This document shows positions 3,801-45,007 of a stretch of 50,282 nucleotides of DNA, piece by piece; within the stretch, counting starts at the first letter, position 1; every line of letters starts with the position of its first letter. The stretch is from an uncultured bacterium (GTDB taxonomy: Bacteria; Armatimonadota; UBA5829): contig CAYSLA010000005.1 in NCBI GenBank assembly GCA_964431685.1, positions 1 through 50,282 of the forward strand. The letters are read 5' to 3'. A program made the translations under genes and the position numbers. The notes beneath the pieces were generated by a model. It was not told the origin of the DNA. It did no database searches and worked only from the letters and a program-made list of their open reading frames with translations.

Positions 3801-4985
3801 ATGTTTGCGGTTCGCAGCCTGTTATTGCGGTGGGTCGCTTTGGCTGTCGTTCTGGCTTGGCCCACTGCTGGGCAAACAGCTTTCTGGACGGGCAAGGGCG
3901 CCGTCGCAGTGAAGTACAACGATGACGGCACCTCCGCTGGTGTCACTGTTTCTGACGCCAGGATAGCCTCTGTGCAGTGGCTTATGTACGACTCCGGAAA
4001 GCTCTACGTCGTTGACTATGGCAGCGGCAAAGTCCTGCGATTCGACACCACAACGCGCGCGGTGGACCCCGCTTGGATCATCTCCGATACCACAAACAAA
4101 CCTCTGAGGATCGTTATTGGCCCGGACGGCAAGTTCTGTGTGGTGGTCGTCACGACTGGAGTCGGCAGGCAAGTGGCTCGCTACAATTCGGACGGAACAT
4201 TCGACAAGATCTTGATCACGAATGGCACGGCCACCGGCGAGGCGAGCGATCTTCACTGGGGCTCAAACGGCAAGTTGTATGTTATGGCCGGCGCCGACAG
4301 GAAGCTCTACCGGTTCAACGCTGACGGCACCTTCCTCGATACATTCGCCGACCTCGGCAGCATGTGGATGTTGAACCCAACAGATTTCACGTGGGATGAA
4401 TCCGGTCGAGTTTACATAGGCGACTACGCTGCCGGCAAGGGCATCGTTCGTCTGAAGGCTGACGGCTCCTATGACATCACCCTGGCTGACCCCGGCACAG
4501 GAGAGCACGCGTTGGGCTGGCTCAACGGCAGATTGGTGGCCAACCCGTCGGAAGGAATTAAAGTGTGGGACGAACCGACCAACACCTGGACAGATGTGCA
4601 AAGGCCACCGGTAAGCTGGACACAGGGAATGGCTGTCGAACCTACCACATTTCCGGAACCGGGTTGGATAAAGGTGCACGTAACGCTGTCGGATTTTGCG
4701 GGTGAAGCGTCTCTTAGTCCCGTCAAGATAGAGTTGATGCAGAGCGGCGTTTCAGTTGCCAGCGTGAGCGTCTTCTTGGACGGCAGTGGCAACTATATAT
4801 GGCCGAGACTCAACGCCGGCATCTACGAGGTAGCCGTCTCAGCGAATGGTTGGCTACGAAAGGTCGTGCCGGGTGTGATGGTAAGCGACGACTCCGAGAC
4901 TCTCTGCTCAGTCTCGCTGACCAACGGGGACGTTGACGGCGACAATGAGATAACAAGCACAGATCTAAGTGTTGCACTTGAGTGA
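3801..4985 (+). CDS. secreted NHL/beta-propeller repeat protein with CarboxypepD_reg-like and single dockerin-like C-terminal modules
   Basis: Signal peptide (LLLRWVALAVVLAWPTAG). Repeated blades of the form GKLYVxD...R[FY]NxDGTF. C-terminus ...YEVAVSANGWLRKV...NGDVDGDNEITSTD. Confidence 0.7.
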   Translation: MFAVRSLLLRWVALAVVLAWPTAGQTAFWTGKGAVAVKYNDDGTSAGVTVSDARIASVQWLMYDSGKLYVVDYGSGKVLRFDTTTRAVDPAWIISDTTNKPLRIVIGPDGKFCVVVVTTGVGRQVARYNSDGTFDKILITNGTATGEASDLHWGSNGKLYVMAGADRKLYRFNADGTFLDTFADLGSMWMLNPTDFTWDESGRVYIGDYAAGKGIVRLKADGSYDITLADPGTGEHALGWLNGRLVANPSEGIKVWDEPTNTWTDVQRPPVSWTQGMAVEPTTFPEPGWIKVHVTLSDFAGEASLSPVKIELMQSGVSVASVSVFLDGSGNYIWPRLNAGIYEVAVSANGWLRKVVPGVMVSDDSETLCSVSLTNGDVDGDNEITSTDLSVALE

Positions 4986-11169: not shown

Positions 11170-11266
11170 ACTACGTCATGCCGGTCCTGAATCAAGTTCA
11201 GGATATCCGGCAACCATCCGGAGAAGGGATGGGCCCTGAAACGAGTTCAGGGTGACGTGGTTTCTC
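11170..11266. repeat. composite palindromic element, copy A (multi-hairpin, closing stem ACGTCA/TGACGT)
   Basis: Shares its flanks and central hairpin with 20843-20925: ACTACGTCATGCCGG...CCGGCA[A/C]CCATCCGGAGAAGGGATGGG...AGTTCAGG[G/A]TGACGTGGTTTCTC. It contains CCTGAATCAAGTTCAGG and CCCTGAAACGAGTTCAGGG. Confidence 0.8.
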
Positions 11267-17753: not shown

Positions 17754-20387
17754 CTACTTTCCTTTCGCCTTCTGCTGCAGTTCGTAGAGTTTGTTCATGG
17801 CTTCTATCGGGGACATCACCGAGACGTCCAGCGTTTCCAGCTCGTCCATCACAGGGTCACGCTCCGCCTCGAACAACGAAAGCTGCAGGCGTTCCTGTTT
17901 CACGCTCACTTTCGCGCCTCTCGCCACAGCCTTTCCGCTCGCGCCGTTAGACTCCAGTTCCTTGAGAATATCCTTGGCCCGCTCAATCGCCTCCTGAGGC
18001 AGGCCCGCGAGACGTGCTACCTCAATTCCGTAACTCCTGTCCGTCCCGCCAGGCATGATCTTGCGGAGCCACACGATGCGGTCTTTCTCTTCGCGAACAG
18101 CTATCCGGTAGTTCTTCACTCCCGTAAGCTGCTTTTCCAGTTCATTGAGATGATGATAGTGGGTGGCGAAGAGGGTTCGCGCCTTGAGGCGGTTGATCTG
18201 TTCCGCCACGGCCCACGCGATCGACAGGCCGTCGTATGTGGAAGTGCCTCGGCCAATCTCATCCAGCACGATCAAGCTGCGCATCGTGGCATTGTTGAGT
18301 ATGTTGGCGGTCTCGTTCATCTCCACCATGAAAGTGCTCTGGCCGCTGGCAAGCTCATCGTGCGCGCCGACCCGGGTGAATATGCGGTCCACCACTCCAA
18401 TTACCGCTTCCTCCGCTGGCACAAAAGAACCCATCTGCGCCAGCAGCACAATGAGCGCGACCTGCCGCAGATATGTGGATTTTCCGGCCATGTTGGGACC
18501 GGTTATTATCAGAAGTTGGTCTGTGTCGCAGTCGACGAAGGTGTCGTTTGGAACAAACCTCTCTGCAATGAACTGCTCTACGACCGGATGCCTTCCGTTC
18601 TTGATGCGAAGATCAGCTCCGTCGTTGACTTCCGGTCTCACATATCCACGCGACGCGGCGACTTCCGCCAAAGCGCAAAGCACGTCAACCTCTGCCACCG
18701 CCCTGGCCACTGAGGCAACCGATCGCATCTCGTCAGCCACCTGACTTCGCACCTCGCAGAAAAGAGTGTACTCGAGTTCCTTGGCCTTATCGTCCGCACC
18801 AAGAACCTTGGCCTCCATCTCTTTGAGTTCGGGGGTAATGAAGCGCTCGGCATTGGTGGTGGTCTGTTTGCGTATGTAGTCCTCCGGAACGGCTTCGAGG
18901 TTTGACTTCGTGACCTCAAGATAGTATCCAAACACGGAGTTATAGCCAACCTTGAGGTTCTTGATGCCTGTGCGCTCGCGCTCCTGGGCTTCCAGCCTGG
19001 CAATCCATCCCTTGCCGTCAGTTGAGGCGCTCCTGAGTTCATCCAAATCGGCGCTGTATCCCGGCGCTATGATGCCGCCATCACGGATGGTCAGCGGCGG
19101 CTCCGGCACGATGGAGTGGTCGATAAGCTCGACCAGCGGCTCAAGGAACTCGACTTCGCCCGATAGCGACTGCAGCCGGGGACTCGCTGCCTTGATCAGC
19201 GCACCTTGCAGTGCAGGAAGCTGCTTCAGAGACTCTGCCAGCCCTACCAGGTCGCGCGCGTTCGCGCTCTCCGCGACAATGCGCGCCATGAGCCGCTCGA
19301 GGTCCTGGATGCTTCCGAGCACTTCGCGCAGTTCGCCCCGCAGCAGTGCGTCGTTGTAGAGTTCGGACACCGCGTCCAGACGGCGGTTGATGGCTCCGAC
19401 CTCCAGAAGAGGCTGATCCAGCCACTTGCGCAGCAGTCTGCCGCCCATGGCAGTTCGTGTCTTGTCGATGATGGACAGAAGCGACGCGCCCCTGGTGTCG
19501 GCGCTCATAGAATGCGTCAGCTCCAGATTCCGTCTCGCGGCAGCATCGAGCACCATAAACTCGCTGGTCGAATAGACGCTCATATTCGCGATAGACTGCA
19601 GGGCCCCGGCGTTCGTTTCCTTCAGATAGCCAAGCAGTATTGCCCCAGCCTCCAAGCCGGCGGTCATATCTTCGGCCCCAAAGCCACGAAGCGAGTCAGT
19701 GCCAAACTGGCTGGTGAGAGTCTCCTTGGCAGGGCGGTGGTATATAGCACTTTCTTCGGAGCGAGTCACGGTCGCGCCTGTGGTCTGCTTGATCGGATCA
19801 GCCAGATCCCAGTCGAGTTCACGCAGCAGAACCTCAGCCGGAGCCAATCTTCCGATTTCTTCCAGAAGCCGCCCAGATGCGTCACGCCCGGATACTTCGG
19901 TCACCGCAAACTCGCCGGTGGAGATATCCGCCACCGCAACGCCATAGACCTCGGGCTCGCTGCAGACGGCCACCAGGTAGTTGTTGGATTTGCCGTCCAG
20001 CATGCTGTCTTCGAGCACTGTGCCAGCCGTGACCACACGTGTGACGCCGCGTCTTACTATCTTCTTGGTCTTCTTTGGATCCTCGAGCTGATCGCAAATG
20101 GCGACTCGATAGCCCTTGGAAATCAGACGTGCGACGTAGCGTTCAACGGCATGGTGAGGGAACCCGCACATCGGCACTTCAGCCGCATAGCCTTGAGAGC
20201 GAGAAGTGAGGACAATCTCCAGCTCACGGGAGGCGGTGACAGCATCCTCGCCGAACATCTCGTAGAAATCCCCGAGCCGGAACATCAGGATAACGTCCGG
20301 ATACTGCTCCTTGATCTGCAGATACTGGGCCACCATTGGGGTGACCTTCTTCAAATCCTTGACGTCCTTTATCTCCAAGAGACCCAC
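17754..20387 (-). CDS. mutS: DNA mismatch repair protein MutS
   Basis: 877 aa. N-terminal TPMVAQYLQIKEQYPDVILMFRLGDFYEMF, Walker A GPNMAGKST, and STFMVEM..DEIGRGTSTYDG. Confidence 0.95.
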   Translation of the reverse strand: MGLLEIKDVKDLKKVTPMVAQYLQIKEQYPDVILMFRLGDFYEMFGEDAVTASRELEIVLTSRSQGYAAEVPMCGFPHHAVERYVARLISKGYRVAICDQLEDPKKTKKIVRRGVTRVVTAGTVLEDSMLDGKSNNYLVAVCSEPEVYGVAVADISTGEFAVTEVSGRDASGRLLEEIGRLAPAEVLLRELDWDLADPIKQTTGATVTRSEESAIYHRPAKETLTSQFGTDSLRGFGAEDMTAGLEAGAILLGYLKETNAGALQSIANMSVYSTSEFMVLDAAARRNLELTHSMSADTRGASLLSIIDKTRTAMGGRLLRKWLDQPLLEVGAINRRLDAVSELYNDALLRGELREVLGSIQDLERLMARIVAESANARDLVGLAESLKQLPALQGALIKAASPRLQSLSGEVEFLEPLVELIDHSIVPEPPLTIRDGGIIAPGYSADLDELRSASTDGKGWIARLEAQERERTGIKNLKVGYNSVFGYYLEVTKSNLEAVPEDYIRKQTTTNAERFITPELKEMEAKVLGADDKAKELEYTLFCEVRSQVADEMRSVASVARAVAEVDVLCALAEVAASRGYVRPEVNDGADLRIKNGRHPVVEQFIAERFVPNDTFVDCDTDQLLIITGPNMAGKSTYLRQVALIVLLAQMGSFVPAEEAVIGVVDRIFTRVGAHDELASGQSTFMVEMNETANILNNATMRSLIVLDEIGRGTSTYDGLSIAWAVAEQINRLKARTLFATHYHHLNELEKQLTGVKNYRIAVREEKDRIVWLRKIMPGGTDRSYGIEVARLAGLPQEAIERAKDILKELESNGASGKAVARGAKVSVKQERLQLSLFEAERDPVMDELETLDVSVMSPIEAMNKLYELQQKAKGK

Positions 20388-24171: not shown

Positions 24172-24840
24172 CCTTAACCCGATTCAGGACTGATCCCGCC
24201 ACTCGGCATGTGCGGGACAAGTGCCGGTATGGCCTTGTTTCCGGCAGAAGTGAGGAATCTGCCCTTTGAATCCTCGGCACGCTCAGCAGATTCCTCCGTT
24301 CCATCGCAATGATGCGTGCGACGAGCGTTAGTCGCCTGACTGCCCCGCGTTTTTCAGCGGCACGCTCATGTCGGTACTGGTGACCTCATTGTCACCATCA
24401 GTATCGCCGTTTAAGAGCAGCGTGTCAAGAGTGACGGACTGACCTGCCCAGACGACCACACCGGGGAACACCCGTCTCAGGAATCCGGAAGCGCTCACCT
24501 CGACGTCGTACACACCGGGGTCGAGGTTAAGAAACGCGTAGCCGCCAGGGTTCTGGGCAAGAGTAACGCTCTGGCTGGCAACGGTCACACCCTGCTGCTT
24601 CAGGTCGATAGAGACCGGAAGCAAATCCAAACTCCCAATGAAGCCCTCGAGAGTTATAGACCCTCCCAGGGAGCTTATGTCGCCGCCGTATCTGATGCCG
24701 CTTGAGAGCCTCAGCTCGTCCATACTGCCGAGCAGGTTGTACCAGTTGTGCCCGTCTTGTCTCCCGGCCACCGTCGCGGGGCCGAGCACAGGATCCGGCG
24801 TGCCCATGCTAGTAACATCCTGCGCAAAGACCTGAACTCC

Positions 24841-24864
24841 CCCTGAATCAAGTTCAGGGCAAGA
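24841..24864. repeat. 24-nt palindromic unit R1 (CCCTGAATCAAGTTCAGGGCAAGA)
   Basis: Exact 20-nt core. It lies between LamG segments ...GGRNII and GVQVFAQD, where the paralogs have KFWKN. The frame is not preserved here. Confidence 0.9.
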
Positions 24865-25134
24865 TAATGTTCCGCCCGCCGGACTCTGCGTCCCTCTGCC
24901 ACGTCACCGCGGCGTGAGTCCAGGTGTTCAAGTCCCAGTCGGTTGACGGATCCATAACAGACTGCCAACCGCCCTTGGCATACCAGCCAACCGACATGCG
25001 CATCCGGCCGCCGGTGTAGACCAGCGACCAACTGTAGTCAGCGCCGGTATAGTTCTGCAGGAGCACCCAGTAGCTATTCTCCAAAGTCGGATATAGCCAC
25101 GCTTCGGCAGTAAGGCTGTCTATTCCAAACCCAA

Positions 25135-25154
25135 CCCTGAATCAAGTTCAGGGC
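25135..25154. repeat. palindromic unit R2 (20-nt core)
   Basis: Exact core CCCTGAATCAAGTTCAGGGC. Removing 22 nt (25133-25154) joins YKKV to GFGIDSLTAEAW in frame. Confidence 0.9.
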
Positions 25155-25177
25155 GACTTTCTTGTAGACGCCGCTCT

Positions 25178-25201
25178 CCCTGAATCAAGTTCAGGGCAAG
25201 C
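25178..25201. repeat. 24-nt palindromic unit R3
   Basis: CCCTGAATCAAGTTCAGGGCAAGC. A clean 24-nt insertion within LamG coding sequence. Confidence 0.95.
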
Positions 25202-25219
25202 TATAGTTAACTTGCAGAG

Positions 25220-25243
25220 CCCTGAATCAAGTTCAGGGCAAGC
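25220..25243. repeat. 24-nt palindromic unit R4
   Basis: Identical to R3 and separated from it by 18 nt (6 codons, LQVNY region). Confidence 0.95.
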
Positions 25244-25322
25244 TGTTGCCGAAGCTGGTCTGTCCGGCGATGTAGTGATTGGGCTGGGCGGCTAGACCAG
25301 TGTTGAGCGTCCCATGCACGTC

Positions 25323-25342
25323 CCCTGAATCAAGTTCAGGGC
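25323..25342. repeat. palindromic unit R5 (20-nt core) at a gene-fragment junction
   Basis: Exact core with a tail (TCGA) that differs from the consensus. It supplies the TGA stop of ORF 25336-27774 and directly abuts the truncated LamG fragment. Confidence 0.9.
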
Positions 25343-27774
25343 TCGATTCCGTCGCGCAGAAGCACCATCCGAAGACTGGGGACGATGTTCATGTTCTTCT
25401 CCGGAAGGTCGGTGCCCCCTGAATCAAGTTCAGGGCAAGCTCTGGGATCGGGCGGGTAGAAGTAGGCGAGAGTGCCGTTCCCATATTGTCCGCCTGGATT
25501 AACCCAGGGATTCTGGAAGACTACGTACTCATTCTCCTGCCACCATATCGCTATCGCCCAGGTGGACATACCCTTCGCGCCCATCCACCACACCTTCGGC
25601 GCCATAAGCCGCTGGTCGATGGAAGGAGCGTCTATGAACTGATGGATGGTTTGTGTGTAGTAGGTCCAGACCTCTTTGCCGGCCGGGTACGCAGCAATGG
25701 CCGCCGGCGAAGCGATGTTGAGCGCATCGTTATTCTCTGGTATGAGAATATCAACGTGGTTGCGAAGAGCATCATAGGCCTCGGCGTTGTAGACGTAGGC
25801 ACCCATCTTCACGTCCTTAGCGTGCGGCTGCAGACGGAATGCGTCTATGAAGTTACGGACTCCCTGATACGCGTAGGGCTGCGGTTCGTCAATCTGAACA
25901 AACGCGTTATCAAGCCAGCCTTTGGCCGCCAAGTGAGCAGCAAGCGGCTCGTAGTAGCTGGTCACATATGGCGTCGCGCTCTCCACTGTGGTGTCTGCGA
26001 GAAGAGGGCCGGACTCGTGGCCGATTGAGTGAGTACTCAAGTTCAGTTCATCCAAAACACGGGAGTACTCCACGTCGTATTCTGCGGGGAACGCCGGGAG
26101 CGTGCCTGTGTACCACACGTAAGGAATCAAAGGATTGGTCTCGGCTATCTTGTAGCGAGCCATCTCGGAGACATAATCTCTCGTCAGGCTGTATTTGTCC
26201 ACGCGCTCAGTGACCTTGTGGAACGGAAAAACCTCGGCGCTGGCATATCTGGACATCTGGAAGGATGTCTTGCAGCTCGGCCGCTCCGGCAGAACGAAAT
26301 TCCACACCTTGAGTTCAACCGGCACATTGACCACGCCGGCTGACGTATGCAGGTTCACCTGGCCGTTGTAGGTTCCCGCAGGCATCTGCCTGGGAATGGT
26401 CACGTCTACCCAGATAATGATATTGGGATCACCCGCGTCGAACGACACCGGGGCAAATTTCACCAAAGGATCCGGCAGGTTACCGGTGAATGCGGAGCGT
26501 ATCGGTTCGGTCAGGAACTGGCCCGTCTTCGACGGAGTGTGAATAGGCACATAGCAGGCGCGGCGAATATCGAAATTCCTCTGTGGAACGGTTACGCCGC
26601 CGGGACCAGTAAGACTCGCGCTGACTGAGGTAATCGCTCCCGCCGAGGTTGGGCGGAAGACCAGTTGCAGCGCCTCCGACTCATTACGCGCACATGAGAT
26701 AGAGACCTTGGTACGGTTGGCGCTCGGTGCCTGAGCATTCTCCAGAACCTTTTTTGTGGTGGACGTATACCAAAGACTGCCCAGGCTGCCCGATGGCAGC
26801 GAGTATGATATGTCTTCCTCAACCCATTCGGTGGCTGCAAGCTTGGTAACGTTCAGCGTCTGAGACGGAAGGGAAGATGCCTGCTGACTCGGAACGTGCG
26901 GTGTTATCCCTTCCAGCGGAGAGTAGTACAGGTCATAATACTTTGTGCCACTCGAGGCTGCGTTCAGGACGAACCCCACCTGGCACTCGCGCAAAGAGAT
27001 ATCGTCAGCGGCGGACCCCAGTATACGCTCAAACCGCACTTGCAGTTTGTCATTGATCCAACCCGCTTTGTCCCACGTGTTGAAGTAGTACTCGCGTGAA
27101 TACCATCCGGTTGCAGGTATGTACGGATCGCTGTAGGTGTGCGATACGGGCTGCCACCATAGGTCGTTGACGTTGGAATACGCAGCGGACGAGCCAGACC
27201 CCTTCGCCCAATGGGAGTACCGATACCACGTGTTGGGGTTAACGGTGACATACTGCCAACAGGCGGACCGATCCTGGGCGGTGCCCTGCACAGTCATACA
27301 CCAACTGCCGTCGTGTGAGTTCTGCTGCAAGACAAACGATGCCGGCTGGTCTATGTTCCATCCCACCGGCACGCCGCCGGACTGCTGCTCGAAGTTGCCG
27401 TTCACTACCAGTTCCTGAGTTCCCACCACGATCTTGTAGGCCGCGGACACATTGTCGCTGATCAGGTTGCCGCCCGCGTCGACCTCAACGAGTTTCACGT
27501 TGTCATAAGAGAAGTACTCGTGCTGGAACTTGAACTCGGCCTTCTCATTTAGCCAACTGGTGATCGTCTGAGGCGTCAGATTGAGCGCATACGAACCGGC
27601 TGACGGCACGCTCACAGATATGCGAACTCTGAACGGGTAGTAACTGTCCGTCCAGGGAGCCGCATATACTCCCAAAGCACCAATCACCAGAATGACCGTG
27701 ACGGCCAGAATGCAGAAAAACGATTGCCTGGTTCTGCCAAGGATAGTCTTAGACATATTGTTGTCCATCATCAT
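25336..27774 (-). CDS. DUF4091-like putative glycoside hydrolase (GH123-like), N-terminal membrane anchor; C-terminus truncated
   Basis: 812 aa. Motifs ARNESEALQLVFRP, ELKVWNFVLPE, GNGTLAYFYP...PSLRMVLLRDGIE. The usual continuation (DYE...; compare SIRWEVWAESLQDYAILQ in 48494-50095) is missing, and the ORF stops inside R5. Confidence 0.75.
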   Translation of the reverse strand: MMMDNNMSKTILGRTRQSFFCILAVTVILVIGALGVYAAPWTDSYYPFRVRISVSVPSAGSYALNLTPQTITSWLNEKAEFKFQHEYFSYDNVKLVEVDAGGNLISDNVSAAYKIVVGTQELVVNGNFEQQSGGVPVGWNIDQPASFVLQQNSHDGSWCMTVQGTAQDRSACWQYVTVNPNTWYRYSHWAKGSGSSAAYSNVNDLWWQPVSHTYSDPYIPATGWYSREYYFNTWDKAGWINDKLQVRFERILGSAADDISLRECQVGFVLNAASSGTKYYDLYYSPLEGITPHVPSQQASSLPSQTLNVTKLAATEWVEEDISYSLPSGSLGSLWYTSTTKKVLENAQAPSANRTKVSISCARNESEALQLVFRPTSAGAITSVSASLTGPGGVTVPQRNFDIRRACYVPIHTPSKTGQFLTEPIRSAFTGNLPDPLVKFAPVSFDAGDPNIIIWVDVTIPRQMPAGTYNGQVNLHTSAGVVNVPVELKVWNFVLPERPSCKTSFQMSRYASAEVFPFHKVTERVDKYSLTRDYVSEMARYKIAETNPLIPYVWYTGTLPAFPAEYDVEYSRVLDELNLSTHSIGHESGPLLADTTVESATPYVTSYYEPLAAHLAAKGWLDNAFVQIDEPQPYAYQGVRNFIDAFRLQPHAKDVKMGAYVYNAEAYDALRNHVDILIPENNDALNIASPAAIAAYPAGKEVWTYYTQTIHQFIDAPSIDQRLMAPKVWWMGAKGMSTWAIAIWWQENEYVVFQNPWVNPGGQYGNGTLAYFYPPDPRACPELDSGGTDLPEKNMNIVPSLRMVLLRDGIEP
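25417..25440. repeat. 24-nt palindromic unit R6, in phase inside the DUF4091-like ORF
   Basis: Identical 24-mer. On the minus strand it occupies exactly 8 codons (GCT TGC CCT GAA CTT GAT TCA GGG = ACPELDSG). Confidence 0.95.
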
Positions 27775-27898: not shown

Positions 27899-28843
27899 CT
27901 ACTGACCGATCTCGTCAATGTTCGGGATAATAGTCCCTACATCGGCAGCATCAATGGTGTTGTCACCGTTCACATCACCGTTAGTGAGCGAGAAGTTGGC
28001 AGAAGCGGTCTGCCCGATCTCGACCACCACTCCGGAAGCTTTCTGCCGAAGGAATCGGCCCGCGTTGGCGTAGACGTCGTAGGTTCCCGGTTCAAGCTTG
28101 TTGAAACTGTATGAACCCGGATTGCTGGACACGGTCACCGTCTGCGTGGCAACCGTATTGGCCCCCTGTTTGAGCTCAACCTTGACCGGGACCGGCGCGA
28201 AGCTCGCACTGACGTCCTGAAGCGTAATCTGCCCAGCGATGTTGCCCACGGGCACTCCGTATCTGAGGACATTGGACATCCTGAACTCATCGATCTGGCC
28301 GAGGAAGTTGTACCAGGGATGACCGTCTACCCATCTACCGCCCACACTGGCAGGGCCGCCAATTGGCGCCGCCAGACCAAGCAGCGTAACATCCTGCTCG
28401 AAGACCATAACGCCGTTCTTCCAGAACTTGATGATGTTAGCTCCGCCGGTGTCTGACCTCTTCTGATAGGTAACAGCAGCATGCTGCCAGGGCGCGCTCG
28501 GCCCCGCCTCCCACTCAGTCACGTCATCTTGTACCAGTTGCCAGTTCCCGCTGGCATACCAGCCAAAACCCATGCGCATCTTGCCGGCAACATAGGTGAA
28601 GCTCCACTGGTAGTTGCCGCCAGTGTAGTTCTGGATCATAACCCAGTAGCTGTTCGCCTCGTAGGGCTTAATCCAGCACTCAATCGTCAGATCGTCGGTA
28701 TAGGAACCAAGAAGGGCGTTAGCGGGCAGGTCAATCTTCTTATACCCTCCATCGTAGACAATCTTCAGGGCATTTCCAAAACCCGCTTTGTCACTGGCAA
28801 CGTAGTGGTCTGCCTGTATCGCCTTCAGCCACAGTGATACCTG
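27899..28843 (-). pseudogene. LamG / CarboxypepD_reg / dockerin-like paralog lacking start, signal peptide and N-terminal ~55 aa
   Basis: The stop-to-stop frame is open from 28843. Homology begins at QADHYVASDKAGFGNALKIVYDGGYKKIDLP (~28816). The first Met in the track (28639) lies inside the LamG domain. Confidence 0.75.
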
Positions 28844-29879
28844 TTACCACCTGCTTCAGGAACCCTGGCGCGGATATCGCCACGTCATACGTTCCGGCCT
28901 CCATATTGCCGAAGCTGAATATTCCAGGGTTGCTCGTGAAAGTCACGGTCTGAGTCTGGAGCACCGTGGCGCCCTGCTTCAGCTCTACCGTCACCGGGAC
29001 GAGCGTAAGGTCTCCGACGTATCCCTGCAGTGTAACTGTGCCGCCAATAGATATCTCCTGGGTTCCGTACCTCAGTACATCTGAGAGCCTGAACTCATCG
29101 ATCTGGCCCAGCACGTTGTAGTAAGGATGGCCGTCCATCCTCCCACCAAGTGTGGCGGGGCCGTTGACCGCGGTCGGTTCGCCAGTATCCGGATCGGGTC
29201 CTCCTTCGCTGAACCCCCAACCAGTGACATCCTGCCGCAGGACTTGCTCGCCGTTCTTCCAGAACTTTACTATGTCACGCCCGCCAGTGTCGGATCTTCT
29301 CTGAACAGTTACAGCGGCGTGATTCCAGACACCGATTTCCCAGTCCGTCGAACTGTCGGTGACGTCCTTCCATCCGCCAAAGCCGTACCAGCCCAGATAC
29401 ATGCGCATCTTCCCAGCATCGTACAACATACCCCAGTTGTAGTCGCCGCCGGTATAGTTCACGAAGATGACCCAGTACGTGTTGGGCTCGACCGGGCGAA
29501 TCCACGCCTCCATCGTAAAGTCGCTCGGCCCCATCCAGAACTTCACATTGTCCGGATAGGGCACTTCAGGGAAACCTACATTCTTGTAGATGAACCCGGT
29601 ATAGTGAATGCGCAGAGCGTTGCCAAAACCGGCCTTGTCACTCACAACGTGGTGATCGACCTGTCCGGCCAACCCCGTATTGAGCGTTCCATTTACGGGG
29701 TTAGGAGCAGAATCAATAACTGTCGTGGACGTCAGGTCTTCGTCAAAATGAAGCAGTAGCCGAGTGTTCGCGTCCGCGTCGAACGGCTGGGTCCAGTCGG
29801 TGTAGTTCTGTGCGCACAGCGGCGCGCAAAGCGCTACAAACACAGCAAGAGAAAGCCACACCAATTGTCTTCTCAACAT
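28791..29879 (-). pseudogene. LamG / CarboxypepD_reg paralog lacking its C-terminal dockerin-like end
   Basis: RBS GGAAGGAGA, then ATG 29879 (MLRRQLVWLSLAVFVALCAPLCAQ signal peptide). The ORF ends ...GFLKQVVTGITVAEGDTGRPLRCQ*, where the paralogs continue about 35 aa to the NGDxDGDN motif. Confidence 0.7.
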
Positions 29880-30133
29880 TACATGTCTCCTTCCACGAAA
29901 TAATCGAATGACTCGACGGTCACTCGTCAGGTTTTGCCCGGAACGCCGCTGCATACCGCCAGGCGCATGCCGGGCCAGATCAGACTACAACTGTACTGGC
30001 TGCCACACCTCCCCCCAAGAATGTATCGTGCAGCACTGCACCAATCACCCAAGTCCTGCCAGGCCGGATCCGATTGGCATCACAAGGCCCTACGGGTCCG
30101 ACCCGCTCTTCTGTGTCGCGTAATACTACTGTT

Positions 30134-35171: not shown

Positions 35172-37046
35172 TTAGATATTGGCCTTGACCTCGTCGCCAA
35201 ACCCTATATATCGCTTCTCGCGAACGTCATAGATGTGGCCACTGGTGTCCAGCTTGAGGGTGCAGTCAAGTCCCTGGCCTTTCTGCATGCGTGATTCCTG
35301 GGGCACATAGTAACTGGTGCGGAATGACTCTTGGACCAGCGGGTAGTACACGACGTTGTCCGACCCCACAAACTTGCCTATCCGATAGTACGGCGCACTC
35401 TTCTCAGGATAGTACGGTGTGGTAATTGTCACGGCCCGCAGGGGGTAGTCCTCGCCCAGTGCCTTTCGGAAGACCTCGCGGTACGCACGCGCCATCGACT
35501 CCCTGCCTGCCATCGGATCGTGGTAAGGTCCCGGCAGCGGATCGGGCAGATAGACTTTGTAGTTGCTCAGATATGAGTTGACGAACACTGCGCGCCCGGC
35601 TCCGTGTTTCTTTGAGGTGACCAGGGGCAGAGCATCCGTAAATGTGCTGATCACTTCCGCCTGAACTGGCTCGTCATAGCAGGTCACGTAGTTGACCTTC
35701 TCCAGCAGATAGGGCCAGTCAAAGCCTATGGCTCCGGCGTATCTGGTACCCTCAATGCCAAACCTGAACTTGCTGTCCCGCTCCTGAAGGGACTCGAGTG
35801 TAGCGCCGTGAATATCCGCGAACAGCTTGTCCATATAAAGGCGGTACTCCAGCCACGGCGCAAAGGTGTAGATCTCGTCGCCGTCTCCGGCTCTCAGATC
35901 GTCCTTGCTTATCTCGCCGGCAACGCCTCCGCCGCCCACCTCCACGTCGGAGCGTGCCAATGTCTCACTTATGTTGCCCAGCTCAGCCGGTTGGGTTTCA
36001 CCGAATGACTTGTAGGACGTTCCCCAGCTCCTGTTGAACCGCGAGAGGTCGCCCGCATACGACTGCTCCATCCACTTTCGGAAGGCCTCGATGTTCTTTG
36101 GCGCGTATGACATCCAGCTCTGCTGCTCGTCGCCGGACAGGTATGTATCTACCCCCCACTTCTTGGCCACGTCCGCGTTCCGGTTCACGTGCCACACGTA
36201 TTGGGAAACGAACGCGTCGTCTCCAAGCACCATCCGGCTTTCATCGGCCGGCCTCCAGAGTCGATTATCCTCGGCTCTCGCAAGGTATGAGAGAACTCCA
36301 GCGGAGTACTGGAAGATCGGCCTGATACCGTGCACGGCCAACGTGCCAAAGAAGTCATCCAAGACCCCATCCCACTCCTCGTCAGACAGCTTCTGGGACG
36401 CATAGTAGTTTGCGTACGCCGTACTCCCCACAACGCCCACATCTCTCTGAGTCTTGAGCGCGTGCAGTGCCCAGGGCCTGTTGAACTGGAATGGCGCTTC
36501 GCCCCACACGTCGAAGACGAACTCCTCAACTTTGTGGTCGAAATCGTCCAGTCCGCAGGCCACCGGTTTCTTGACCACGTCGACGATCTTCCCGGCGTTC
36601 TTGAGAGTCACCGACAAGAAGACCCCACTGCTCTTCGCATCTGAAGTGTCCATATTGAATCGCGCTTTGCCGCCGTCGACACGCCTGGAGTCGGACCAGA
36701 TAAGACGATCGTAACCGTCGTGGACTTCAGCCTGCAAGGTGTCTCCGGCGGAGGCCGAGTCGAGAACCACATCAAACGTTCCTCCGGCCTTGGGGTAGCC
36801 TGACTTTGCTGTCTGAACTTCCTTGATTCCCGGCCGTGTGCCTTCGACTGGGACGACACAGAAGTCCAACGTCCTGCCATACATGTCCTTGAGCCATAGA
36901 TTTGCGAGGTTTTCGCCCTTCCTGACAACCGAAAACGCCTCCGCCAGCGGCACGCGGACTGCGCCTGCTCCGTCCGTATTCACGGCGAAAGCCGCGCTTG
37001 AGCAGAGCTCATAGTTCTTATCTCTGAGTTCGCTCACCAGCGTCAT
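35172..37046 (-). CDS. GH42-like family protein, middle segment of a split paralog
   Basis: 624 aa. FRKWMEQSYAGDLSRFNRSWGTSYKSF. Colinear with residues ~430-1090 of the 1208-aa protein. Confidence 0.65.
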   Translation of the reverse strand: MTLVSELRDKNYELCSSAAFAVNTDGAGAVRVPLAEAFSVVRKGENLANLWLKDMYGRTLDFCVVPVEGTRPGIKEVQTAKSGYPKAGGTFDVVLDSASAGDTLQAEVHDGYDRLIWSDSRRVDGGKARFNMDTSDAKSSGVFLSVTLKNAGKIVDVVKKPVACGLDDFDHKVEEFVFDVWGEAPFQFNRPWALHALKTQRDVGVVGSTAYANYYASQKLSDEEWDGVLDDFFGTLAVHGIRPIFQYSAGVLSYLARAEDNRLWRPADESRMVLGDDAFVSQYVWHVNRNADVAKKWGVDTYLSGDEQQSWMSYAPKNIEAFRKWMEQSYAGDLSRFNRSWGTSYKSFGETQPAELGNISETLARSDVEVGGGGVAGEISKDDLRAGDGDEIYTFAPWLEYRLYMDKLFADIHGATLESLQERDSKFRFGIEGTRYAGAIGFDWPYLLEKVNYVTCYDEPVQAEVISTFTDALPLVTSKKHGAGRAVFVNSYLSNYKVYLPDPLPGPYHDPMAGRESMARAYREVFRKALGEDYPLRAVTITTPYYPEKSAPYYRIGKFVGSDNVVYYPLVQESFRTSYYVPQESRMQKGQGLDCTLKLDTSGHIYDVREKRYIGFGDEVKANI

Positions 37047-37082
37047 GCTGAACTCGATTCAGCACCCAGACGTTCCCTTCTC
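37041..37082. repeat. partial copy of the composite palindromic element, at an ORF boundary
   Basis: CGTCATGCTGAACTCGATTCAGCACCCAgacgtTCCCTTCTC. Compare the reverse complement of element A, CGTCACCCTGAACTCGTTTCAGGGCCCATCCCTTCTC. It contains the palindrome GCTGAA-ctcga-TTCAGC (37047-37063). Confidence 0.7.
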
Positions 37083-42416: not shown

Positions 42417-43286
42417 CTACTTCGATCTGCGGCGAAGCGCAGAACCGATTGCGGCACAGCAACCCATCGCGAGCACCGCTAGTGATGCGGGCTCAGGAAC
42501 AGGAGCAGCTCCATAACGGATCGAGTCCGAGATTCTAAGCTCATCCATCTGGCCAAGGAAGTTGTACCACGGATGGCCATCAATCCACCTGACAGCCACT
42601 CCTGCCGGCCCGCCTATCGGATTCGGCAGGCCGAGAAGTGTACTGTCCTGCTCGAAGACCATGACGCCATTCTTCCAGAACTTCACGACATCAACTCCAC
42701 CGGTATCCGATCTTCTCTCGTGAGTCACAGCAGCGTGCACCCAGGGAGCATTCGGTCCGGCCTCCCAGTCCGTCACGTCATCCTGGACGACTTGCCACGC
42801 ACCGGCGCTGTACCAGCCAAGGCCCATGCGCATCTTGCCAGCGACATTGGTGAATGTCCACTGGTAGTCGCCTCCAGTGTAGTTCTGGACGATATTCCAG
42901 TAGCTGTTCGCCTCATACGGCTTGAGCCAGCACTCGATGGTCAAATCTTTGTCGCCAATCGCCAACTTGTCATCCGCGGGCAGGTCGATCTTCTTGTACG
43001 CGCCGTCGTATACGATCTTCAGCGCATTGCCAAACCCGGCTTGGTCACTCGCGACATAATGGTTTGCCTGGCCGGCCAGACCGGCGTTCAGAGTGCCATT
43101 GATGTTGTTCCCGCTGGAGTCGTTTGCGGTAACAGCATCCAGACCGTCGTCGAAGCGCAGAAGCAGCAAAGTGTTGGCATCTGCATCGAACGGCTCGTCC
43201 AGTCAGTGTAGTTCGCCGCAAAAGCCGCTGTAAGGGCAAACAAAGAAACGACTACCACACACAAAACTGTTCTGAAGTACTTCATC
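42417..43286 (-). pseudogene. LamG (Laminin_G_3-like) protein with PEP-CTERM anchor; 1-nt frameshift after the signal peptide
   Basis: MKYFRTVLCVVVVSLFALTAAFAANYTDWT is in one frame and EPFDADANTLLLLRFDDGL... in the next. C-terminus VPEPASLAVLAMGCCAAIGSALRRRSK (PEP-CTERM). Confidence 0.8.
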
Positions 43287-43657: not shown

Positions 43658-45007
43658 TTAGTGGTTGTCGATCTCGCCAACAAACCCGTAGAGGTGGGAC
43701 TGCGTTGCTCGGACACGTACGAACTGCCCAGCAGTAGCTACGGAGCCTGGAAAGTTCGCAGTCTTGTTCTGACGCGTAAGACCGGTCAGACGGCCATCGT
43801 GTTTGGGGCTGATTCCCTCAACCAGAACCTCATAAGTGCGGCCGACCTGAGAGGCGTTGATCAGGCTGGTGATCTCGTTTTGTAGCTCGATGAGTCTGTT
43901 GAGGCGCGCCATCTTGACGCGCTCCGTCAGATGCCCGTCCATCGCGGCGGCGGCGGTACGGGGAATGGGGTTGAACGAGAACATGAAAGCCGAGTCGAAT
44001 CTGACATCCTCGACAAGCCTCAATGTGTTCTCGAACTGCTCCTGGGTCTCTCCGGGAAACCCCACAAGCAGATCAGTAGTAATCGCGATATCCGGCATAG
44101 CGGAGCGCAGAGCGGCGACCCTCTCGCGGAACACTGCGGAGGTGTACTTCCTGTTCATACGCGCCAACACCTCATCGTCTCCCGACTGCACCGCAAGGTG
44201 AATGTGCTCGCACACCTTTGGCAGCTCAGCCATCGCTTCTATGAGTCGATCTGACAAGTCCTTTGGATGGCTGGTAGTGAATCTGATGCGTTCGATCCCG
44301 GCAACCTCGCTTACCTTGCGCAGTAGATCAGCGAAATCGGTGCTTATCCCCAAGGTCGCTCCGTAGGAGTTCACGTTCTGGCCGAGCAAGGTTATCTCCT
44401 TCCGGCCCAATGCCGCAAGTTGAGTTGCCTCCTCCACGATTTCGTCCAGCGGCCGGCTGCGCTCCCGCCCGCGCACATAGGGCACGACGCAATACGCGCA
44501 GTAGTTGTCACATCCGTACATTGCGGGAAGAAAGCTCTTGAGCGCAGTCCCCTGACGGTCTACTCTCTGTGGCAGGGACCGTGCGGCGTCGCCGGGTTGC
44601 TCCGGCATATCCAGAGCGGCCGCAAATGAACGCCGCTCTTCAATGCGGCGAATGATGTCCGGAATCTGGTGAATGGCCGCGGTTCCCACCACGAAGTCCA
44701 GGTACGGCCGGCCCTTACGGAGCGCGCTGCCTTCGCGCTGGGCCATGCACCCGCACACACCGATTATCATCCATGGACGCTGCTCTTTGAGTATTCTCAG
44801 TTCACCCAGCTTGCTCTTCGCCTTCTGCTCCGGCTTTGCCCGCACGCTACAGGTCACCAGTACAGCTATGTCAGCCTCATTTGCTTCTTGGGTCGGGGCA
44901 AGACCCATCTGCATAAGAAGACTCGAGATCTGCTCTGAGTCGTCCTCGTTCATCTGGCAGCCCCAAGTGTAAATGATAAATCGGTTCACGGTTACGCGCA
45001 CTCTCAT
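43658..45007 (-). CDS. miaB: tRNA-2-methylthio-N6-dimethylallyladenosine synthase MiaB
   Basis: 449 aa. UPF0004 N-domain (IYTWGCQMN), radical-SAM CDNYCAYC, and a TRAM C-terminus. Confidence 0.9.
   Translation of the reverse strand: MRVRVTVNRFIIYTWGCQMNEDDSEQISSLLMQMGLAPTQEANEADIAVLVTCSVRAKPEQKAKSKLGELRILKEQRPWMIIGVCGCMAQREGSALRKGRPYLDFVVGTAAIHQIPDIIRRIEERRSFAAALDMPEQPGDAARSLPQRVDRQGTALKSFLPAMYGCDNYCAYCVVPYVRGRERSRPLDEIVEEATQLAALGRKEITLLGQNVNSYGATLGISTDFADLLRKVSEVAGIERIRFTTSHPKDLSDRLIEAMAELPKVCEHIHLAVQSGDDEVLARMNRKYTSAVFRERVAALRSAMPDIAITTDLLVGFPGETQEQFENTLRLVEDVRFDSAFMFSFNPIPRTAAAAMDGHLTERVKMARLNRLIELQNEITSLINASQVGRTYEVLVEGISPKHDGRLTGLTRQNKTANFPGSVATAGQFVRVRATQSHLYGFVGEIDNH

Follow-up and report, generated by a model that had tools for sequence, protein, structure and literature searches.

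The CGTC-tagged superfamily of REP sequences was defined by Di Nocera, De Gregorio and Rocco (2013, BMC Genomics 14:522; PMC3733652) and includes dRS3 of Neisseria as well as RPE-4 and RPE-6 of Rickettsia. Its members are built from an unpaired CGTC (or TGTC or CCTC) tag, an 8- to 9-bp stem that starts with an A-T pair, a 4- to 5-nt loop and a short tail, and they were reported in five phyla, including in Gramella forsetii and Sulfurovum (PMC3733652). The copies are dispersed, most of them extragenic, and head-to-head dimers dominate (PMC3733652). Intragenic copies were described in DNA-repair and tRNA-synthetase genes, and small palindromes within genes, sometimes twice at nearby sites, are known for REP and RPE elements (PMC3733652). 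The authors who defined the superfamily left open whether new copies still form (PMC3733652).

Here we describe an Armatimonadota locus at which the hairpin CCCTGAA-CTTGA-TTCAGGG is present in six perfect 19-nt copies, all in a single orientation, within 595 bp. The window, i.e., the whole stretch of DNA analyzed, comprises 50,282 bp, and the exact 19-mer starts on its plus strand at positions 24841, 25135, 25178, 25220, 25323 and 25417. We labeled the copies A to F, in downstream order along the minus strand, in which direction the start-to-start spacing is irregular (in plus-strand order 294, 43, 42, 103 and 94 nt), with 18 to 19 nt between three of the units. Since shuffled windows contained zero matches to the 19-mer, and since the probability of six copies in 595 of 50,282 bp is ~1e-9 under uniform placement, chance was excluded. 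The hairpin has a 7-bp stem (CCCTGAA/TTCAGGG) and a 5-nt loop, and as single-stranded DNA it folds with -6.5 kcal/mol (z = -3.9). The units and the genes in which they lie, together with a paralog used as reference, are the following.

25336 to 27774, minus strand: GH123-family glycoside hydrolase ORF of 812 aa (Pfam GH123_cat), which carries unit A
25417 to 25440, minus strand: unit A, GCTTG plus the 19-nt hairpin, preceded by A (flank AGCTTG); 24-nt cassette, frame kept
25323 to 25341, minus strand: unit B, 19-nt core without the AGCTTG extension, 5' flank GAG; frame +1
25220 to 25243, minus strand: unit C (R4), clean 24-nt insertion between FGN and ALQVNY, flank AGCTTG; reads LP*T*FR, frame kept
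25178 to 25201, minus strand: unit D (R3), clean 24-nt insertion between VNY and (E/K)SGVYKKV, flank AGCTTG; reads LP*T*FR, frame kept
25135 to 25153, minus strand: unit E, core preceded by GTCG (19 or 22 nt); frame +1, 8 to 13 LamG codons missing
24841 to 24863, minus strand: unit F, core preceded by (T)CTTG; frame +1, four codons missing
24328 to 25322, minus strand: remnant of a LamG, CarboxypepD_reg and dockerin-like gene (Pfam Laminin_G_3, CarboxypepD_reg)
28791 to 29954, minus strand: intact paralog (LamG plus CarboxypepD_reg), free of units

Like the CGTC-tagged REPs, the units have a 5-nt loop and relatives in many phyla, with intragenic copies that encode extra residues (sometimes two per gene) and no known linked transposase. 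Moreover, more than 100 genomes contain the same 19-nt hairpin, usually with a (C)GTCA tag and a TCT tail. Unlike the canonical members, however, none of the units has the CGTC tag: A, C and D are preceded by AGCTTG, F by TCTTG, B by GAG and E by GTCG, whereas tagged copies make up 87 of the 133 matches listed from elsewhere, plus the relatives at 11234 and 37041 of the window. Although the loop length fits, the 7-bp stem is missing the canonical outer A-T pair (ACCCTGAA...TTCAGGGT), and there is no constant tail 3' of the units, while canonical copies continue with TC(T). The arrangement differs as well, with six intragenic copies in direct orientation here and a head-to-tail tandem in the metagenome contig L135 (see below); several copies are out of frame, introduce stops or adjoin deletions.

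The GTAG-type REP and REPIN sequences and their RAYT transposases (TnpA_REP, HUH Y1) offer a second comparison. They too combine a short tag with a hairpin in a non-coding element of 20 to 40 nt, and single-strand mobilization in trans has been proposed for them. Tag and sequence are different, no GTAG is located beside any unit, and no RAYT is encoded in the 50-kb window. REPINs are inverted doublets and nearly always extragenic. RPE-1 of Rickettsia and its relatives are palindromes inserted in frame without destroying the host gene, as is unit A and as are the copies in Mfd, LeuRS and GlnRS genes elsewhere, but they are 100 to 150 bp long, compared to 19 to 24 nt, and most copies at our locus are disruptive. 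Short stop-bearing hairpins within coding sequence, some of them frame-changing, also occur as translational-bypass inserts (the T4 gene 60 gap and byp of Magnusiomyces mitochondria). In contrast to these, our units are not flanked by matched take-off and landing codons, their host gene is shortened and has lost conserved residues, and the element is mainly intergenic elsewhere.

Two further classes were considered. The short palindromic 24-nt direct repeats, three of them with 18- to 19-nt spacers, are reminiscent of CRISPR arrays, which were ruled out because the spacing is irregular, the spacers are contiguous gene sequence homologous to the paralog, and neither cas genes nor a leader is present. 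The features of a MITE were not found either: the unit is a single 7-bp hairpin, no IS with such ends was seen, and units A, C and D have no target duplication beyond 1 nt. The latter is in line with the earlier note on this DNA, which had reported no obvious target-site duplication at two of the units.

The 24-nt insertions

The earlier note concerned units R3 and R4 and stated that their removal restores a homologous LamG reading frame. The two units are identical (plus strand, CCCTGAATCAAGTTCAGGGCAAGC; minus strand, GCTTG followed by CCCTGAACTTGATTCAGGG). Indeed, deletion of both at their exact coordinates yielded the stop-free minus-strand peptide GLAAQPNHYIAGQTSFGNTLQVNYKSGVYKKV, which aligned without gaps to residues 102 to 126 of the paralog (HVVSDKAGFGNALRIHYTGFIYKNV). 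The sequence read through the deletion (...HYIAGQTSFGNTLQVNYKSGVYKKV) was gap-free on the paralog. In the gene frame, each of the two units is translated as S L P * T * F R, confirming that each adds two TGA codons. Recoding of TGA was ruled out because 13 of the 28 long ORFs of the window end in TGA, which is an ordinary stop there.

The note had further proposed that each insertion is exactly 24 nt long, and we analyzed whether other lengths fit equally well. Since a scan of single units with 48-nt flanks was confounded by the neighboring units, a joint deletion scan of R3 and R4 (lengths of 15 to 33 nt, all offsets) was scored against the paralog. The pair (24, 24) was best with a score of 106, followed by (24, 27) with 104, and all remaining pairs reached at most 97. 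Judged by the paralog alone, the preference for 24 nt is clear at R4 but slight at R3. The length is nevertheless fixed by the 25-mer AGCTTGCCCTGAACTTGATTCAGGG common to three units, by unit A, which corresponds to exactly 8 codons in comparison to eleven orthologs, and by a 24-nt tandem period in contig L135. The boundary at R3 and R4 can slide by 1 nt, the note having allowed for 1 to 2 nt.

R3 and R4 (units D and C) belong to a set of six, of which no more than three have a length that is a multiple of three. This property is not a clue to the insertion process: the length belongs to the unit (5 + 19 nt), and B, E and F shift the frame by +1. Similarly, the statement that no flanking sequence is lost applies to R3, R4 and A, but not to B, E and F, where gene sequence is missing beside the hairpin.

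No two of the six units have the same bases 3' of the hairpin (GGC, GAC, CTC, AGA, TTG and GGA), and the spacers between the units are contiguous LamG or GH123 gene sequence. Because the spacers are non-repeated and contiguous, a segmental duplication was ruled out. Intrinsic terminators were discarded since T-runs are lacking, except at one unit and on the non-coding strand only. An Rfam E-value scan of positions 24700 to 25600 gave only sub-threshold chance matches and no matching family. Carriage by phages was also ruled out, with only 4 matches in 2.9 million viral contigs.

Host genes and genomic setting

To infer the ancestral state, we used the paralog for the LamG part and orthologs for the GH123 part. 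The GH123 orthologs (849 to 913 aa, 43 to 53% identity) share the pattern ...YFYPPxPx-G(T/S)xLxxK...VPSLRxxLxRDGIED[YF]EYA..., which is followed by ~60 further residues. Unit A is stop-free in frame and contributes ACPELDSG to the GH123 protein. These residues stand between PPDPR and GTDLPEK as an exact 8-codon insertion, and all 11 of 11 orthologs read directly from PPxPx to G(T/S)xL without them. After RDGIE, the orthologs continue with D[YF]EYA... for ~60 aa, while the window sequence changes at unit B to LamG homology, beginning at paralog residue 87. Unit B, located at the GH123/LamG junction, supplies the TGA that closes the 812-aa ORF, which thus ends ~60 aa short of the usual C-terminus. 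According to these alignments, a GH123 gene that has lost its 3' end is joined at unit B to a LamG gene lacking its 5' end.

The reconstructed LamG part gave no match in a word-indexed protein search. An exhaustive search with the paralog revealed 11 further LamG homologs, resulting in an alignment of 13 sequences (the window gene and 12 homologs). The window gene is without the signal peptide and the first strand (DWTQPF...LLHFDE...), which are present in 12 of the 12 homologs. At the site of unit E, 12 of 12 homologs have 12 to 24 residues and the window gene has ~4. At unit F, the F-x-x-N of the conserved F-x-x-N-G motif is gone and the G is kept. When the units are left out, the remnant and the paralog share 47% identity over 294 aa (E = 8e-92), and the alignment has gaps precisely where units E (13 aa) and F (4 aa) stood.

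Units C to F split the LamG remnant into three frames, and defects are found only at the units. When all six units were removed, one ORF of 1104 aa without any other defect was obtained, with GH123_cat, Laminin_G_3 and CarboxypepD_reg domains and a dockerin-like tail. In summary, A, C and D were each inserted as a clean 24-nt block and no target sequence was lost, whereas B, E and F, in which the AGCTTG extension is incomplete, coincide with lost gene sequence on that side. Based on the frame breaks at the units and the GH123/LamG truncation, we conclude that the LamG part is a pseudogene. Since the unit copies do not differ from one another and the remnant is otherwise undamaged, this pseudogene is young.

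Gene callers split the former locus into genes of 811 aa, 70 aa (76 aa in two assemblies) and 159 aa. The calls in the LamG remnant at 24711-25031 and 24328-24807 are hypothetical proteins that now exist as database protein clusters P0165 and P0170. These split calls are annotation artefacts of the hairpin insertions.

The structure was the same in seven assemblies from at least six samples (JGI 3300022556, 3300025145, 3300013091 and 3300025279; ENA ERZ27245470 and ERZ27245789; Logan SRR5214704), which contained all recoverable units at 99.93 to 100% identity. The search for alleles without R3 and R4 came back empty, as none of the seven assemblies represents an allele lacking any unit.

In the relatives L157 and L159, miaB and mutS are adjacent, while in the window miaB (43658-45007) and mutS (17754-20387) are 23 kb apart. 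The interval 20388-43657 is a glycan-degradation island with a GH42-like gene, three GH123-family genes, genes for LamG proteins and a GntR/LacI-type regulator gene; from the gene order, it looks like a lineage-specific insertion. Because miaB and mutS are adjacent in relatives and separated by the island here, we regard the locus as accessory DNA. The window MutS is 80% identical to MutS of Armatimonadota MAGs. At the MutS-anchored loci of these relatives no synteny with the unit locus was detected, nor did the neighborhoods of the GH123 orthologs show synteny with the window.

Small paralogous secreted proteins are encoded beside GH genes at 27899-28639, 28791-29954, 42417-43169 and 3801-4985. 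They are composed of LamG and/or CarboxypepD_reg and dockerin-like modules, and the C-terminal part of the interrupted gene belongs to this group. The only transposase-related sequence seen in the window is a 64-aa fragment of an ISL3-family DDE transposase at ~16.3 kb (L120 21306-21500).

The hairpin and the 24-mer in other genomes

The identical 19-mer was found in at least 119 contigs of species-representative genomes; our own estimate of the chance expectation is ~4 matches in 596 Gb. The matches come from many phyla and groups, including Bacteroidota, Spirochaetota, Campylobacterota, Chloroflexota, Nitrospirota, Melainabacteria, CPR groups, and Alpha- and Gammaproteobacteria. Among the matches listed, TGAC is present 3' of the 19-mer in 87 of 133 cases, and the flanks GA...TGAC in 80 of 133; on the other strand, these flanks correspond to (C)GTCA-hairpin-TC(T). 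Neighboring repeats covary in the outer stem pairs, e.g., GTCA-TG-CTGAACTTGATTCAG-CA-TCT. The 19/19 identity with tagged copies from, among others, Flavobacteriia (including Christiangramia), Sulfurimonas and Treponema fits a relationship of the hairpin to the CGTC members, among which it is placed by the published description of the superfamily and not by a published consensus. Hairpin sequence variants gave no match in full-text literature, and the supplements of PMC3733652 contain neither the hairpin sequence nor the encoded peptides.

Relatives of the hairpin that are of canonical form, though diverged, are present in the window itself.

11185 to 11257, plus strand: two diverged intergenic hairpin relatives, the second of which (11234) has the canonical flank ...TTCAGGGTGACG (reverse complement, CGTCA-hairpin)
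37041 to 37064, plus strand: CGTC-tagged relative CGTCA-TGCTGAA-CTCGA-TTCAGCA at a gene boundary

Among the matches listed, 12 of 134 copies in other genomes are located in frame inside long ORFs. From the translations, inspected by eye, we recognized among these ORFs apparent housekeeping genes, namely those for Mfd, LeuRS, GlnRS, HisF, a GltB-like protein, GlnE and a SNF2 helicase. Stop-free in-frame sites were seen at L018 2849, L028 1313, L094 3550 and 4387, L095 4957, L049 6541 and L047 6284, and the peptides DPELDSGQ, ALNLIQGL and SPESSSGQ are encoded by in-frame hairpins in unrelated phyla.

The exact 24-mer was present in 29 metagenome contigs. In many of them, and also in L004, it sits in the loop of another REP or exactly between the tag and the stem, and removal of the 24 nt from the host REP restores CGTC directly followed by ATTGCGAG. 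In L148, the 24-mer is intergenic, and the sample from which this contig originates also holds the window organism. Hairpins nested in the loops of hairpins of the same superfamily were additionally observed at L009 2350, L109 3983, L014 5840, L080 227, L091 7595 and L117 875, an example being GTCATTCCGG[CCCTGAATCAAGTTCAGGG]TTCGGAATCT. The nesting points to loops, or the tag-stem junction, as favored sites of entry or exchange.

A second cluster was detected in contig L135 (Ga0136653_10092594), which contains, in 600 nt, six copies of the 24-mer with the same orientation. A perfect 24-nt tandem array (3.4x) is made up of three of these. The units lie within apparent coding segments in shifting frames; a Pfam analysis of the reconstructed L135 peptide gave no match, so coding status is assigned here from open frames alone. 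The metagenome of L135 also contains a contig 99.985% identical to the window, and L135 is presumably part of the same genome. Clustering in the same orientation is thus reproducible between the window locus and L135, and unlinked single copies also exist.

At 627-779 of L135, two 21-nt tandem arrays (CGTCATCCCTCACATCTCTGC, 5.4 copies, and CATCGCCTTGATCGGGCACGT, 2.2 copies) are located beside a canonical hairpin, TCCCGAATCAAGTTCGGGATGAC. Comparable repeated runs made up of a tag plus half a stem (TTCAGGGTGACnnn...) were seen 3' of the hairpin at several genome loci, e.g., in L007, L036 and L116.

Origin of the cluster

On balance, we consider it probable that this locus became a pseudogene through a tag-less, REP-derived hairpin cassette that is mobilized in trans and strongly prefers nearby sites. 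The unit would be a miniature non-coding mobile repeat of the REP type, representing the hairpin core of the CGTC-tagged family. In this Armatimonadota lineage, a stripped derivative would circulate in which CGTCA is replaced by AGCTTG and the TCT tail is absent (24 nt), or of which only the bare 19-nt core remains. Within 600 bp of an accessory glycan-degradation locus, the cassette has been inserted no fewer than six times and always in the same orientation. It would have been moved as single-stranded DNA, in trans, by a hairpin-recognizing enzyme, with a RAYT or IS200-like HUH tyrosine transposase as a model. Reinsertion preferentially nearby and on the same strand would produce clusters, uniform orientation and tandem copies, and the adjacent deletions would result from cuts or strand transfer at the hairpin's 5' foot.

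RAYT/IS200-type HUH transposases work on the lagging-strand template (PMC6006769). The GC skew of the plus strand is negative across the whole window, and most genes are on the minus strand. The strand carrying AGCTTG and the hairpin might be the lagging-strand template, which would be compatible with the GC skew and the gene strand.

Several observations count against mobilization of a REP-derived cassette in trans. CGTC-type REPs have no known dedicated transposase (PMC3733652), and no HUH gene was found in the 50-kb window. At ~22 insertion sites, whose flanks the earlier note had thought worth comparing for a target motif, neither a consensus motif nor a target duplication beyond the 1-nt boundary ambiguity was detected. 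At the MutS-anchored loci of relatives and the loci of GH123 orthologs, no ortholog of the LamG part without units was found. Finally, direct-orientation clusters and tandem copies are atypical for the CGTC family, as are units without the tag, the A-T stem base and the tail.

The earlier note had favored local copy-paste or a templated process. In its explicit form, this explanation assumes one arrival of the unit, after which the other copies were made by template switching or repair synthesis from a neighbor into breaks or gaps, without any transposase. The extreme clustering seen both at our locus (six copies in 595 bp) and in L135 (six in 600 nt), the perfect 24-nt tandem array, the single orientation of all copies and the missing target duplication agree with it, and deletions beside hairpins are expected of hairpin-stalled replication. 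We nevertheless consider it unlikely, because the identical 24-mer also exists as single copies at unlinked and unrelated loci and precisely nested in other REPs, because template switching would hardly give identical 24-nt boundaries at three sites, and because the spacers are contiguous gene sequence, so that the cluster is no segmental duplication. What stands of the earlier proposal is the local burst, which is real and was seen again in L135; a purely local origin is insufficient, given a 19-nt hairpin in at least 119 contigs and a 24-mer at unlinked loci and in unrelated metagenomes. The local bias may come from short-range hopping of a transposed unit or from copying with a neighboring unit as the template.

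That the hairpins form a functional array, selected in place as RNA stabilizers, terminators or protein-binding sites 3' of a shortened GH123 gene, appears very unlikely to us. In its favor, a role as RNA elements is considered for REPs located 3' of ORFs (PMC3733652), the 812-aa ORF takes its stop codon from unit B, and the structure is fixed in every sample with the locus. However, a T-run follows only one unit and only on the non-coding strand, the units destroy recognizable coding sequence of the second gene, and relatives show no conservation of the array. It is highly improbable that the locus still encodes one protein and that the units are skipped by the ribosome, similarly to T4 gene 60 or byp, or are removed from the mRNA. 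Such a reading could build on the 1104-aa frame, which is free of other stops and frameshifts once the units are taken out, on the three +1 shifts, which sum to zero so that the last segment returns to the GH123 frame, and on the fact that every unit is a hairpin with stop codons. It is contradicted by the unit borders, at which inspection of the sequence revealed no matching take-off and landing codons, by unit B, which joins truncated genes (the ~60-aa GH123 C-terminus, the LamG signal peptide and the first strand are missing), by the conserved residues lost at E and F, and by the occurrence of the same hairpin in ordinary intergenic DNA elsewhere. The chance that the units are an assembly or sequencing artefact is practically negligible: short repeats can mislead assemblers and contig L122 stops directly after unit B, but seven independent assemblies (JGI, ENA and Logan) of at least six samples show the same units at 99.93 to 100% identity.

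Going beyond the trans-mobilized cassette as such, we tentatively raise the possibility, which we regard as rather doubtful, that the 24-nt AGCTTG cassette is a currently active micro-transposon that arose from CGTC REPs and moves by a hairpin-directed single-strand process in which neither a tag nor a linked transposase is needed.

The unit is a stripped member of a known and widespread class of palindromic repeats, and intragenic insertion of such repeats has been documented before. New features are the 24-nt cassette without a tag, its bursts of same-orientation copies, the tandem array and the deletions anchored at hairpins, in a phylum outside the earlier surveys compared. The hairpin also yields spurious or altered ORFs in metagenome annotation, for example those with ...PELDSG... 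or ...LNLIQG....

How REP-type palindromes multiply is still unsettled, and the locus is unusually clean material for this question. It offers six identical copies whose junctions are defined to the nucleotide, three clean 24-nt insertions for which orthologs and a paralog provide a check, three copies with deletions on the tag side, and a second cluster with a tandem array. Any mechanism is constrained to be strand specific, local, prone to adjacent deletions, free of target duplication and independent of the tag, and the 24-nt unit is a defined substrate for in vitro tests. If the cassette is indeed a micro-transposon, it would be among the smallest discrete mobile DNA units, with local bursts, tandems, nesting and hairpin-foot deletions as its products, and the window locus and L135 would be natural snapshots of its activity with exact before-and-after junctions.
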